From the NCBI GenBank assembly GCA_045531455.1, contig JAZSEA010000075.1:149978-213977 (forward strand): a stretch of 64,000 nt of DNA. Reading direction: 5' to 3'. The translations under genes and the position numbers were made by a program. The stretch comes from Eubacteriales bacterium. Lineage in GTDB: Bacteria > Bacillota > Clostridia > Oscillospirales > CAG-272. Of this stretch, positions 51,490-55,424 are shown piece after piece (within the stretch, counting starts at the first letter, position 1; the number at the start of each line of letters is the position of its first letter). A model generated the notes under the pieces. It searched no databases. It was not told where the DNA came from and saw nothing but the letters and a program-made list of their open reading frames with translations.

Positions 51490-52899
51490 ATGAAAAAAAT
51501 ATTCGTCTCTGACTCAACCCTCAGAAATAATTCAGGAGTTTCCGAAACTCCTCTGTCATTCAAGCAACGAATGGAAATTGCCCGTATGCTTGACAGAATG
51601 AAGGTTGACGTAATCGAATTGGCTCCGATCGAGAACGAAAAGATCGACGTTCTTCTCGCAAGAACGATAATCTCATTTCTCAATCATGCCAAAATCGCCA
51701 TACCCGTAGGATTTGACGAAAACGCAATAGATACTGCAGCAAACGCTATAAGTGACGCATCCAAAGCACGTATTCAGATCAGAGTACCTACCTCCCCTGT
51801 ACAAATGGAGTATTTTTGCAGAAGAAAACCTCCGGTTGTACTCGAACTCATCGGAAATCTTGTTAAAAAAGCAGCGCTTACGGGTGCGGAAGTAGAATTC
51901 GTGGCAGAAGATGCTACACGTGCTGAAATGCCTTTCCTCGCAGATGCAATAAATGCTGCTATGATAAACGGCGCAACTGTAATAACTCTTTCCGACGTAG
52001 CTGCAAAAATGATCCCCGATGAATTCTCTTCTTTCGTAAACGAAGTATTCACCGCCGTTCCCGCACTCTCTAACGTCAGAACCGGCGTTGAATGTTCAAA
52101 CGAGTTGGCGCTTGCACTCGCAAACATTGCGGCTGTTCTTAACTCTGATATTTCCGAGGTTAAATGCGCCGCTTGCGCAGACCATATGCTTTCTGTAACG
52201 GATTTCACTAAATTCGTTTCTACACGCGGACTTGAGCTTAACATCGAATCTTCTATAAGAACCACAGAATGCAGAAGGATCATCTCTCAGATCGATTGGA
52301 TACTCAACTCCAAGAAAGAGATTGTTAAAACCGCAGATGACGTTTCCCCCGAAAGCGGTATCATTCTTCGTGCAGGTGATGACATCGGCACGGTTACTGC
52401 CGCTGTTGCAAAGCTTGGATACGAATTATCCGAAGAAGATGCTTCCCGCGTATACGAGGAATTCTGCCGAGTTGCAGAAAAGAAGACAGTAGAAGCTGCG
52501 GAGCTTGACGCCATTGTCGCAAGTGCCGCGCTCCAGGTAGCTCCCACCTATATCCTCAAGAGCTACGTAATCAACAGCGGAAACGTGATTAACGCAACCG
52601 CGCAGGTCACGCTTGAGAAGAATGGCGAGATCATAAACGGTGTCAGCGTAGGCGACGGTCCTATCGATGCCGCGTTCATCGCGATCGAGCAGATACTCGG
52701 ACACCACTATGAGCTTGATGATTTTCAGATCAAAGCAGTTACCGAAGGACGCCAGGCCCTCGGATCTGCTCTCGTTAAGCTTCGCGCAGGTAACAAGATC
52801 TATTCAGGAAACGGTATTTCAACCGATATTATCGGAGCCAGCATACGTGCATACATCAGTGCGCTCAACAAGATCGTATATGAGGAGAATCAGATATGA
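51490..52899 (+). CDS. 2-isopropylmalate-synthase-like protein with degenerate catalytic motifs and an intact LeuA regulatory (dimerisation) domain
   Basis: TIM-barrel region is alignable to LeuA, but RDGEQ reads RNNSG, DTVG reads DVAA and HxH(D) reads ECSNE. The C-terminal GDGPIDAAF...GRQALGS...GISTDIIGASIRAYISALNKI is conserved. Confidence 0.8.
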   Translation: MKKIFVSDSTLRNNSGVSETPLSFKQRMEIARMLDRMKVDVIELAPIENEKIDVLLARTIISFLNHAKIAIPVGFDENAIDTAANAISDASKARIQIRVPTSPVQMEYFCRRKPPVVLELIGNLVKKAALTGAEVEFVAEDATRAEMPFLADAINAAMINGATVITLSDVAAKMIPDEFSSFVNEVFTAVPALSNVRTGVECSNELALALANIAAVLNSDISEVKCAACADHMLSVTDFTKFVSTRGLELNIESSIRTTECRRIISQIDWILNSKKEIVKTADDVSPESGIILRAGDDIGTVTAAVAKLGYELSEEDASRVYEEFCRVAEKKTVEAAELDAIVASAALQVAPTYILKSYVINSGNVINATAQVTLEKNGEIINGVSVGDGPIDAAFIAIEQILGHHYELDDFQIKAVTEGRQALGSALVKLRAGNKIYSGNGISTDIIGASIRAYISALNKIVYEENQI

Positions 52900-55424
52900 A
52901 GCTTTCCTTTTCGGTCAAAGGCTGGAACGATTATTCCTGGCTCGATTATTGCAATATAGCAAAGGAGCTTGGTTTTGAAGGAATCGAACTGCATAACAAT
53001 AAGACAGGCGCATTCAAAAGTGCGGACGATCCATTCGATCCTCAAGCAGCCTTTTCGGTAAATCGTACTCTTTATTCTATGGGACTTGCAATCCCTTGTC
53101 TCGACGTTTCTTGCAATATTGCCGCTACAGATGACAATGAAATAGCTGACAATATTGCTGAAATTGAGAATTCTATCAAGACTGCAGCAAATCTTAAGAT
53201 TCCTTACGTAAGACTTCACGCCGCAGCAATCCCCGGCAATTCCGATAAGAAAAACGCTATAGCTTTCCTCGAAAAGATTCTTCCATCTGCAGAAAGAGCG
53301 GGAATCACTATCCTCCTCGAAACGATGGGTGTATTCGCCGACACCGAAGCACTCCGTGACGTTCTTAATTATTTCGCATCCGACAGTCTCGGTGCGCTAT
53401 GGGATATGTATCACACATATTTTTCAGCAGGAGAATCTCCTTCTTCCACCATCACCAATCTCGGTGCGTACGTCAAGCACGTTCATATCAAGGATTCGCT
53501 TCACGTAGGCGATACACTTGAGTATTGTCTTATCGGTGACGGTGAGCTTCCGATCAAGGATATGATGAACAGCCTCCGTTCCGTAAATTACGACGGATTC
53601 ATAACTCTTGAGTGGGAGCCCGCATGGTTTGCAGATATAGATGACATAGAGGTTATCTACGCTCATTTCGTTAACTATATGCAGCGTATTGATAACCCTG
53701 CAAAGGCTAAAAAAGCCCTCTACAGAAACAAAGCCGGCACCGGTAAGTTCATTTGGAAGAAGGAAGCTCTCATCGACCTCACCTTCCCGAAGGTTCTCGA
53801 CGCAATGGTAGAAGAATTTCCCGACCAATATGCGTTCAAGTATACCACGCTTGATTATACAAGAACCTACTCAGAATTCAGAGACGACGTTGATAATTTC
53901 GCAAGAGCTCTTGTTGCTCTCGGCGTAAGACCCGGACATCACGTTGCTGTCTGGGCAACCAACGTTCCTCAATGGTACATCGCTTTCTGGGCAACCACAA
54001 AGATCGGAGCGGTTCTCGTGACGATGAATACAGCATACAAGATCCACGAAGCAGAATATCTGCTCCGTCAGTCCGATACACACACCCTTATTATGATCGA
54101 CGGTTGGCGTGATTCGGATTACAGCGGAATCATCAGCGAGCTTTGCCCTGAGCATATGAACACGCGCTCAGGCGATCCTCTGCACTGTAAGAGGCTGCCT
54201 TTCCTCCGTAATATCATAACCGTAGGATTCAAAAAGCCGGGATGTCTCACCTGGGAAGAAGCTCTTCTCCGCGCATCGCGCACACCTATTGAAGAAATCA
54301 ATCGTCTTGCTGCCGCAGTTTCGCCTCACGACGTCTGCAATATGCAGTACACTTCGGGCACCACAGGCTTCCCCAAGGGCGTTATGCTGACTCACTATAA
54401 CGTAGTCAACAACGGCAAGTGCATCGGTGACAGAATGGATCTTTCTACGGCAGACCGAATGATGATCCAGGTTCCGATGTTCCATTGCTTCGGAATGGTA
54501 CTTTCCATGACCGCATCAATGACTCACGGTGTAACTATCTGTCCGCTTCCCTACTTCTCACCAAAGCCTGCACTCTCCTGCATAAACAGCGAGCACATTA
54601 CCTGCTTCCACGGTGTTCCAACTATGTTTATCGCTCTCCTTCAGCATCCCGATTTTGAAAAGACCGATTTTTCGTATATGAGAACCGGTATTATGGCGGG
54701 AAGTCCGTGCCCGATCTCTGTAATGCAGGACGTTGTTGACAAGATGCATATGCCGGAGATCACGATCGTTTATGGTCAGACTGAAGCTTCTCCCGGATGC
54801 ACAATGAGTTCAACGGACGATCCGCTTGAGGTTCGAGTCGGCACTGTCGGTCGCGCACTCCCCGAGATCGAATGTAAGGTCATTGATCCCGACACGGGTG
54901 ATGAGCTACCTGACGGAGTAAACGGTGAATTTGTTGCGCGCGGATATAATATTATGAAGGGATATTACAAAATGCCCCTCGCTACCGAATCCGCGATCGA
55001 CGCAGACGGTTGGCTGCACACCGGAGACCTTGCTTGCCGCACACCTGAGGGTAATTATCGCATTACGGGACGCCTCAAGGATATGATCATCCGCGGAGGT
55101 GAAAATATCTATCCCAAGGAAATCGAGGAATTTATTTATACTCACCCCAAGGTTCAGGACGTTCAGGTTATAGGAGTGCCGGATGAGCAATACGGCGAAG
55201 AGATTATGGCTTGTGTTATCCTCAAGGAAAACGAAGAAATGACAGTTGAGGAAATGAGGGCTTACGTCAGAGATCATATGGCTCGCCACAAGGTTCCGAG
55301 ATATATCGACTTTGTCGATTCCTTCCCGATGAATGCCGCGGGAAAGATCCTCAAGTATAAGATGCGCGAAGAAGCCGTTGAAAAGCTCGGTCTGCAGAAG
55401 GCATCAAAGATTATAACCGCATAA
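52896..55424 (+). CDS. Fusion: xylose-isomerase-like TIM-barrel domain + AMP-forming acyl-CoA synthetase (FadD/YngI-like)
   Basis: The N-terminal ~270 aa carry AP-endonuclease-2/sugar-phosphate-isomerase-type motifs (GFEGIELH, LLETMG, HVHIKD, ITLEWE). The C-terminal part has YTSGTTGFPKGVMLTH, YGQTEASP, LHTGDLA and GKILKYKMRE. ATGA overlap with the LeuA-like gene. Confidence 0.85.
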   Translation: MKLSFSVKGWNDYSWLDYCNIAKELGFEGIELHNNKTGAFKSADDPFDPQAAFSVNRTLYSMGLAIPCLDVSCNIAATDDNEIADNIAEIENSIKTAANLKIPYVRLHAAAIPGNSDKKNAIAFLEKILPSAERAGITILLETMGVFADTEALRDVLNYFASDSLGALWDMYHTYFSAGESPSSTITNLGAYVKHVHIKDSLHVGDTLEYCLIGDGELPIKDMMNSLRSVNYDGFITLEWEPAWFADIDDIEVIYAHFVNYMQRIDNPAKAKKALYRNKAGTGKFIWKKEALIDLTFPKVLDAMVEEFPDQYAFKYTTLDYTRTYSEFRDDVDNFARALVALGVRPGHHVAVWATNVPQWYIAFWATTKIGAVLVTMNTAYKIHEAEYLLRQSDTHTLIMIDGWRDSDYSGIISELCPEHMNTRSGDPLHCKRLPFLRNIITVGFKKPGCLTWEEALLRASRTPIEEINRLAAAVSPHDVCNMQYTSGTTGFPKGVMLTHYNVVNNGKCIGDRMDLSTADRMMIQVPMFHCFGMVLSMTASMTHGVTICPLPYFSPKPALSCINSEHITCFHGVPTMFIALLQHPDFEKTDFSYMRTGIMAGSPCPISVMQDVVDKMHMPEITIVYGQTEASPGCTMSSTDDPLEVRVGTVGRALPEIECKVIDPDTGDELPDGVNGEFVARGYNIMKGYYKMPLATESAIDADGWLHTGDLACRTPEGNYRITGRLKDMIIRGGENIYPKEIEEFIYTHPKVQDVQVIGVPDEQYGEEIMACVILKENEEMTVEEMRAYVRDHMARHKVPRYIDFVDSFPMNAAGKILKYKMREEAVEKLGLQKASKIITA

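Follow-up and report, generated by a model that had tools for sequence, protein, structure and literature searches.

A sugar-isomerase-like barrel fused to a predicted isovalerate ligase, and its association with LeuA in gut Clostridia

Introduction

Rumen anaerobes carboxylate isovalerate to leucine, a route that labelling work of the 1960s brought to light (Allison, Bryant, Doetsch 1962 and Allison, Bucklin, Robinson 1966, both as cited in PMC7356843), and we found no paper that assigns to it a ligase gene, a barrel or a LeuA partner. Among ligases for short branched acids, the adenosine monophosphate (AMP)-forming enzyme MbcS of Staphylococcus aureus acts on 2-methylbutyrate and isobutyrate and feeds lipid synthesis, and MbcS-type enzymes use isovalerate poorly (PMC10026030). 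PP_4063 of Pseudomonas putida is a candidate isovalerate-coenzyme A (CoA) ligase from fitness data (10.1101/2020.07.04.188060). Here we describe an AMP-forming acyl-CoA ligase fused behind a xylose-isomerase-like triosephosphate isomerase (TIM) barrel, at the likely end of an operon in a 64,000-nucleotide stretch of DNA from an Eubacteriales bacterium (GCA_045531455.1, contig JAZSEA010000075.1, positions 149,978 to 213,977 of the forward strand; this whole stretch is hereafter the window). The operon resembles the rumen pathway in that acid activation, reductive carboxylation and transamination are all predicted within it, and the strain's contigs are present in sheep and bovine gut runs. With the fusion ligase, the activating step of this leucine route gains a concrete candidate enzyme that can be expressed.

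A neighbouring gene adds a second point of comparison. LeuA (2-isopropylmalate synthase) is the first enzyme of de novo leucine synthesis and is inhibited by leucine; the gene just upstream of the fusion is a catalytically dead homologue of it. The coupling of barrel and LeuA set out below is a new element of this analysis.

The fusion is a genuine two-domain protein

The fusion is encoded by a single open reading frame of 842 amino acids (window 52896-55424, +), in which Pfam finds the combination claimed by the original prediction: AP_endonuc_2 (PF01261, residues 21-242, 108 bits against a cut-off of 31), followed by AMP-binding (PF00501, 304-691, 309 bits) and AMP-binding_C (PF13193, 742-817). 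A homologue search with residues 1-290 yielded 2,041 clusters with lengths of 463-1474 amino acids, and the same three domains are present in all 120 matches listed (820-845 amino acids; 120 of the 2,041 clusters). Contigs from three other studies span the junction in frame and without a gap (X1, 53046-53995; X17, 53559-54028; X3, 51400-54358). The three-domain homologues and the junction-spanning contigs rule out the concern, raised with the original prediction, that a frameshift or assembly artefact had joined two genes; the two-domain protein is genuine and widespread in gut Clostridia. Short homologues were mostly contig-end pieces of the fusion, and true stand-alone barrels came from genome searches. 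In the full-length AlphaFold model (pTM, the predicted template modelling score, 0.62) the packing of the two domains against each other carries no confidence, and residues 267-272 of the linker have low confidence. RNA run X19 holds a single exact contig of 279 nucleotides at depth 3, insufficient to show expression.

The ligase half probably activates isovalerate

The ligase half carries the adenylation motifs YTSGTTGFPKG (residues 485-495), YGQTE (626-630), TGD (709-711) and K817, and all the marks of class I adenylate-forming ligases (P-loop, YGxTE, TGD, the hinge GR-K-D and the C-terminal Lys) are invariant or nearly so in 59 homologues. Its best NCBIfam family is PRK12583 (NF009233), at 698 bits against a curated cut-off of 832, and MbcS (NF047394) is not among its 25 best families. 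MbcS is the best family of the two other ligases of the operon, which lie upstream under Ile and Val control and carry N-terminal non-catalytic helix-turn-helix (HTH)-cupin modules (Pfam); they score 438-446 bits against its cut-off of 850. Because the fusion ligase is only ~25% identical to this pair, whose members are 64% identical to each other, it belongs to a different subfamily, as first suggested. Bacillus subtilis YngI and P. putida PP_4063, which we take to be its PRK12583-type kin, are encoded in clusters for leucine/isovalerate degradation and lack a barrel, in contrast to the fusion. By class, the fusion belongs to the adenylate-forming ligases and to PF01261; it is neither MbcS nor endonuclease IV, and formally not PRK12583.

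Control elements point to leucine. Of 87 homologous units, 72 stand behind a T-box motif (counted by pattern, with leaders confirmed by Rfam), and the leucine codon CUC was called in 60, so that these units would be induced by leucine shortage. Unfused ligases of the same clade also stand behind Leu T-boxes, six of them directly ahead of leuS; barrel-less ligases of the clade are found between a Leu T-box and leuS at loci L203-L206, L209 and L212. Six genomes of the phylum have the gene order ligase, barrel, oxidoreductase gamma subunit (porC), and the oxidoreductase and aminotransferase needed for isovalerate carboxylation are both present in the same operon as the fusion. Given the Leu T-boxes, the leuS linkage, this gene order, the preference of MbcS-type enzymes and the known rumen route, isovalerate is the probable substrate and the ligase most likely the isovalerate-activating step; the poor use of isovalerate by MbcS-type ligases would explain why the Ile- and Val-controlled pair is joined by a third ligase. 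The ligase would convert isovalerate, adenosine triphosphate (ATP) and CoA to isovaleryl-CoA, the Vor-type oxidoreductase would carboxylate this reductively to 2-oxoisocaproate, and IlvE would transaminate the product to leucine. At two loci (L163 and L165, in genomes G001 and G005), ligases of the clade have neither barrel nor T-box and stand between a major facilitator superfamily transporter and a metallo-beta-lactamase-like hydrolase; they probably have another function.

The barrel accompanies the ligase and tracks LeuA

In a sample of 151 genomes of the order, to which the genome counts below refer unless stated otherwise, a barrel orthologue occurs in 83 (57 fused, 26 stand-alone) and the ligase in 87. 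All 83 barrel-positive genomes have the ligase, even with the barrel on another contig, and the 64 genomes without the ligase are all without the barrel too. Across the phylum, 29 of 52 genomes with the ligase lack the barrel, which is thus dispensable for ligation; we infer that it serves the ligase as an accessory and is no pathway step. The fused barrels form one clade (100/100), with a dead-LeuA group nested inside it and a metal-less group nested within that. Five weaker matches to the barrel profile come without a ligase, and the four that entered the tree cluster with a distant paralogue on a single side branch. The strain's own distant barrel paralogue (G000:C51:21931-22701; 26% identical, with E 5e-66 against the stand-alone profile) has a sugar-use-like gene context. 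An XRE-cupin gene was considered as a substitute in barrel-less loci and rejected, being found in only 1 of 17.

The LeuA homologue upstream overlaps the start of the fusion by 4 nucleotides. Like LeuA, it has an HMGL-like barrel and a LeuA_dimer regulatory domain; unlike LeuA, it has no catalytic Arg/Asp, HxH or HESGIH, the motifs RDGEQ, HxH and HESGIH being lost across 66 homologues, and it scores 231 bits with TIGR00973 (cut-off 599). Its best conserved part is the leucine-binding C-terminal domain. Dead LeuA lies directly upstream of the fusion in 75 of 77 loci, and we judge this gene, which the original prediction left out, to be the main clue. Prediction of a complex between it and fusion residues 1-290 gave a score of 0.00, which we counted as evidence neither way. 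Searches of the strain's own genome (97.7% complete) found neither leuC nor ilvD nor a further leuA, and no match above the cut-off for leuB.

Of the 151 genomes, 33 carry a dead LeuA, which invariably adjoins the fusion; in 32 of these genomes no leuB was found. Among genomes with a full-score LeuA, leuB is present in all 24 that have no barrel, whereas it is missing in 16 of the 31 that have one. The 69 leuB-less genomes divide by the barrel as well: a bacterial-type LeuA is kept in 48 of 54 barrel-positive genomes (16 intact orphans and 32 dead copies) and in 0 of 15 barrel-negative ones, a difference whose nominal Fisher p of 1e-10 overstates the case because kin are not independent. Two more barrel-positive leuB-less genomes have a yeast-type LeuA. 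The 16 orphans keep the RD and HxH motifs, and HxxGxH was found in 15; leuBCD lies beside none of them, and no leuC was found in the 5 genomes searched. In a quick tree they fall on ~6-8 separate branches among full-pathway LeuAs, which suggests that leuBCD was lost repeatedly while leuA stayed. One phylum-level genome (G353) shows the same retention pattern, and G077 has, two genes ahead of the fusion, a second LeuA that is intact and groups with the orphans. A literature search, in which subscription journals were thinly covered, found nothing on the fusion, on Cthe_0682, on a dead LeuA or LeuA pseudoenzyme, or on orphan LeuAs. The 54 of 83 barrel-positive genomes in which no leuB was seen may depend on isovalerate from neighbours, and an intact leuA in these genomes is no proof of leucine prototrophy. 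As a separate observation, many of the orphan leuA genes have an apparently intact cimA gene, for citramalate synthase, as a partner, likewise with no leuBCD nearby (L222-L237); cimA-like orphans are present in barrel-less genomes too.

The metal site of the barrel decays only beside dead LeuA

The barrel motifs first quoted are all in place (IELH, residues 30-33; LLETMG, 140-145; HVHIKD, 195-200; TLEWE, 237-241), and with WDMYH, which was not quoted and contains D170, the mononuclear metal tetrad is E142, D170, H197 and E239. The window copy therefore does not lack its metal ligands, and each of the four is 97-99% conserved in the best 120 of the 2,041 homologue clusters. R106 and K199 are further pocket residues. 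The AlphaFold model of the barrel (pLDDT, the predicted local distance difference test, 91) has Art22 (8z1i), IolI and AsbF (3dx5) as nearest folds (Z 27-29, with 29 for 8z1i; root-mean-square deviation 2.4-2.5; identity 16-25%). Membership in PF01261 follows from a profile match above the gathering score, the (beta/alpha)8 fold and the E-D-H-E ligands; any isomerase, epimerase or dehydratase activity is putative. Searches of the ESM Atlas gave generic PF01261 clusters only.

The barrel shares fold and mononuclear E-D-H-E site with the 3-dehydroshikimate dehydratase AsbF, the isomerase Art22 and IolI. It differs from them in its low identity, in neighbourhoods without sugar, inositol or shikimate genes, and in the decay of its site in one clade. 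AsbF is the closest solved relative of the ancestral barrel profile (E 2e-20 only), with the beta-4 Arg, ET(N/H) and HxK aligned; in the window barrel R106 and K199 align, and position 144 is M where stand-alone copies have N or H. From the stand-alone form to the window's group the pocket changes by C10W, R33H and K242P, with R106, K199 and D200 unchanged. Endonuclease IV binds its trinuclear Zn with extra ligands, the His of DxxH and a DRH motif; here H173 is Ser in 67 of 121 homologues and no DRH follows H197. The tetrad is whole in every one of the 69 barrels that lack a dead LeuA; of the 109 beside one, 37 have it broken, in 16 different patterns (some genomes entered twice in these counts).

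A regulatory module or an enzyme?

We favour, at a little short of an even chance, the view that the barrel has a regulatory part, passing on the leucine status of LeuA to the ligase, and is not a precursor-processing enzyme. The N-terminal non-catalytic HTH-cupin modules on the operon's Ile- and Val-controlled ligases speak for it too. In its ancestral form, the metal/Arg pocket might sense a small carboxylate that reports LeuA activity, either 2-isopropylmalate or a branched 2-oxoacid; leucine inhibits LeuA, so 2-isopropylmalate would mark leucine shortage, and an AsbF-like carboxylate-binding Arg and metal site could read it. Alternatively, the barrel might have served as an adaptor joining LeuA to the ligase. 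With either version the ATP-costly ligase would be active only in leucine shortage. In the window's clade, LeuA would have dropped catalysis, kept its leucine-binding domain and relocated beside the fusion; control would then run through direct contact with dead LeuA, and remodelling of the pocket and loss of the metal in one third of barrels would be expected. A sensing or adaptor role would thus account for LeuA kept without its pathway, and both active sites would be free to decay beside dead LeuA. Living genomes suggest the stages on the way from an enzyme pair to a pseudoenzyme pair: the full pathway, an orphan but active LeuA, a dead LeuA within the operon and a barrel without metal. The complete circuit, a so far undescribed one in which LeuA is the leucine sensor and its product 2-isopropylmalate, or its surface, is read by the barrel to switch an isovalerate ligase, is possible but doubtful. 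If borne out, the retained LeuA and the joint decay of its active site and that of the barrel would offer a well-sampled example of enzymes that became regulators.

Several observations weigh against a regulatory role. We know of no precedent for a regulatory PF01261 barrel. The conservation of the tetrad in the nearest 120 homologues fits a live catalytic site, and 72 of the 109 barrels beside dead LeuA, including the window's, retain all four metal ligands. No LeuA was found in four barrel-positive leuB-less genomes (G002, G085, G094 and G098), and the control genomes are few (15), while related genomes are not independent of each other. The fusion in the window lacks its own Leu T-box and sits under a Val T-box. 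Finally, among 20 loci with stand-alone barrels, 13 barrels lie after guaB (in seven families) and 5 after the ligase, and the control model leaves the guaB adjacency unexplained. The guaB-adjacent barrels form one clade, with weak basal support (92/41; 96/86 minus one long row), so we counted the adjacency once and gave a functional link less weight.

The main alternative makes the barrel a true metal-dependent enzyme, an AsbF-like dehydratase or lyase that removes or converts a product or side product of LeuA, such as dead-end 2-isopropylmalate or a mis-condensed 2-oxoacid, and that became dispensable once LeuA was dead. We consider it unlikely, even though it gains from the AsbF match of the ancestral profile with its aligned Arg, ET(N/H) and HxK, from a metal site that is strict unless LeuA is of the dead type, from the catalytic motifs kept in orphan LeuAs and from the two thirds of barrels beside dead LeuA that still hold four ligands; it leaves unexplained why the barrel is never without the ligase in the order sample, why it is fused to it, why it occurs in genomes with full leuBCD and why the domain is kept after loss of metal ligands. 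Quite unlikely is the first suggestion, in which an alternative precursor is isomerised, hydrated or processed in some other way by the barrel, ahead of ligation or after it, and channelled to isovaleryl-CoA. An intact metal site, the fusion itself and the ligase-barrel-por order would suit it, and an Amidohydro_2 gene near the fusion in ~50 of 80 loci suggests more chemistry. However, isovalerate can become leucine without any such step, the clade includes Leu-T-box ligases with no barrel, no dehydrogenase, reductase or hydratase recurs as a partner in ~150 neighbourhoods, the domain outlives its metal site, and neither the retention of LeuA nor decay confined to barrels beside dead LeuA is accounted for. 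The original idea of a leucine/isovalerate role is thus supported for the ligase half, through the Leu T-boxes, leuS co-transcription and the Vor and IlvE neighbours, and is not supported for a barrel that processes the acid or another precursor.

It is very unlikely that the ligase acts on some other leucine-starvation substrate, or in catabolism, which would make salvage the wrong reading. Such a view can point to the want of a characterised close homologue (the best solved ligases match at E about 1e-76), to the score under the PRK12583 cut-off and to two barrel-less homologues within acyl-CoA degradation clusters; it is opposed by the Leu T-boxes, the leuS linkage, the Vor and IlvE neighbours, the parallel Ile and Val modules and the loss of leuBCD in 54 genomes with barrel and ligase. 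The superfamily includes a phosphodiesterase, CbiR (10.1101/2020.09.02.280537), and a barrel that hydrolyses adenylate side products of ligation (acyl-AMP, Ap4A-type nucleotides) would also explain the inosine monophosphate dehydrogenase (guaB) neighbour of 13 of 20 stand-alone loci. This is highly improbable, as the guaB-adjacent copies, forming one clade, represent one event, the extra endonuclease IV ligands are absent and the link to LeuA is unexplained. Two other candidates were rejected: a novel de novo pathway leading from 2-isopropylmalate to isovaleryl-CoA, on its carbon skeleton without LeuCD, and a 2-methylbutyryl or 2-oxo-3-methylvalerate epimerase, control being by Leu and not Ile.

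The operon and its surroundings

The gene run (Table 1) reads Ile T-box, HTH-cupin-ligase 1, Val T-box, HTH-cupin-ligase 2, P-loop protein, four Vor subunits, ilvE, LeuA-like gene and fusion, and the Val T-box is the nearest upstream control element of the part that ends in the fusion. A perfect inverted repeat, GGCTGTCAC-TTTT-GTGACAGCC, directly past the stop codon of the fusion is the likely operon end; a GNAT gene and then a sulfatase gene follow it.

Table 1. Features of the operon and its flanks, in window positions
Feature	Position	Strand	Basis or remark
Consensus promoter of Ile T-box	41852-41880		
T-box leader, specifier AUC (Ile)	41894..42123	+	88.8 bits, slightly below gathering score
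HTH-cupin-ligase 1 (MbcS-like), behind Ile T-box, predicted 2-methylbutyrate ligase	42187..44487	+	Pfam, NCBIfam
Promoter-like site of Val T-box	44531-44559		
T-box leader, specifier GUC (Val)	44577..44808	+	Rfam RF00230, 96 bits
HTH-cupin-ligase 2 (MbcS-like), behind Val T-box, predicted isobutyrate ligase	44848..47130	+	Pfam, NCBIfam
Conserved P-loop protein, 224 amino acids	47137..47811	+	Accompanies vor genes in most loci; without NCBIfam family
Four-subunit 2-oxoacid:ferredoxin oxidoreductase, Vor type	47824..50385	+	NF005507 above cut-off
Vor delta subunit, ferredoxin-like	47824-48030	+	
Vor alpha subunit	48020-49102	+	
Vor beta subunit	49102-49845	+	
Vor gamma subunit	49849-50385	+	
Branched-chain aminotransferase IlvE	50407..51471	+	TIGR01123 above cut-off
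Catalytically dead LeuA homologue with C-terminal LeuA_dimer (leucine-binding) domain	51490..52899	+	Pfam, NCBIfam, alignment
Fusion: N-terminal xylose-isomerase-like (AP_endonuc_2) TIM barrel, residues 1-266	52896..53693	+	Pfam, conservation, AlphaFold, nearest folds
Fusion: interdomain linker, ~residues 267-288	53694..53759	+	Full-length AlphaFold model; independent contigs span linker
Fusion: AMP-forming acyl-CoA ligase, PRK12583-like, predicted isovalerate-CoA ligase	53760..55424	+	Pfam, NCBIfam, sequence motifs
Perfect inverted repeat	55430-55456		Directly past fusion stop codon
GNAT gene	55513-56007		Past inverted repeat, as is the sulfatase gene

At other loci the surroundings vary. The pair metY-metA lies near the fusion in ~19 of the 80 loci; at L002:12502-15549 and ~19 similar loci the fusion is followed by Amidohydro_2 (metal motifs intact), metY and metA. 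The nearest amidohydrolase of the strain's own genome (32% identity) is elsewhere, at G000:C9:57397-58200. Outside the window, the same genome has a T-box of 70 bits with an apparent Tyr specifier (UAC) ahead of a 545-amino-acid AMP-forming ligase (G000:C67:321-2275), possibly the same salvage strategy, by analogy, for tyrosine from 4-hydroxyphenylacetate.

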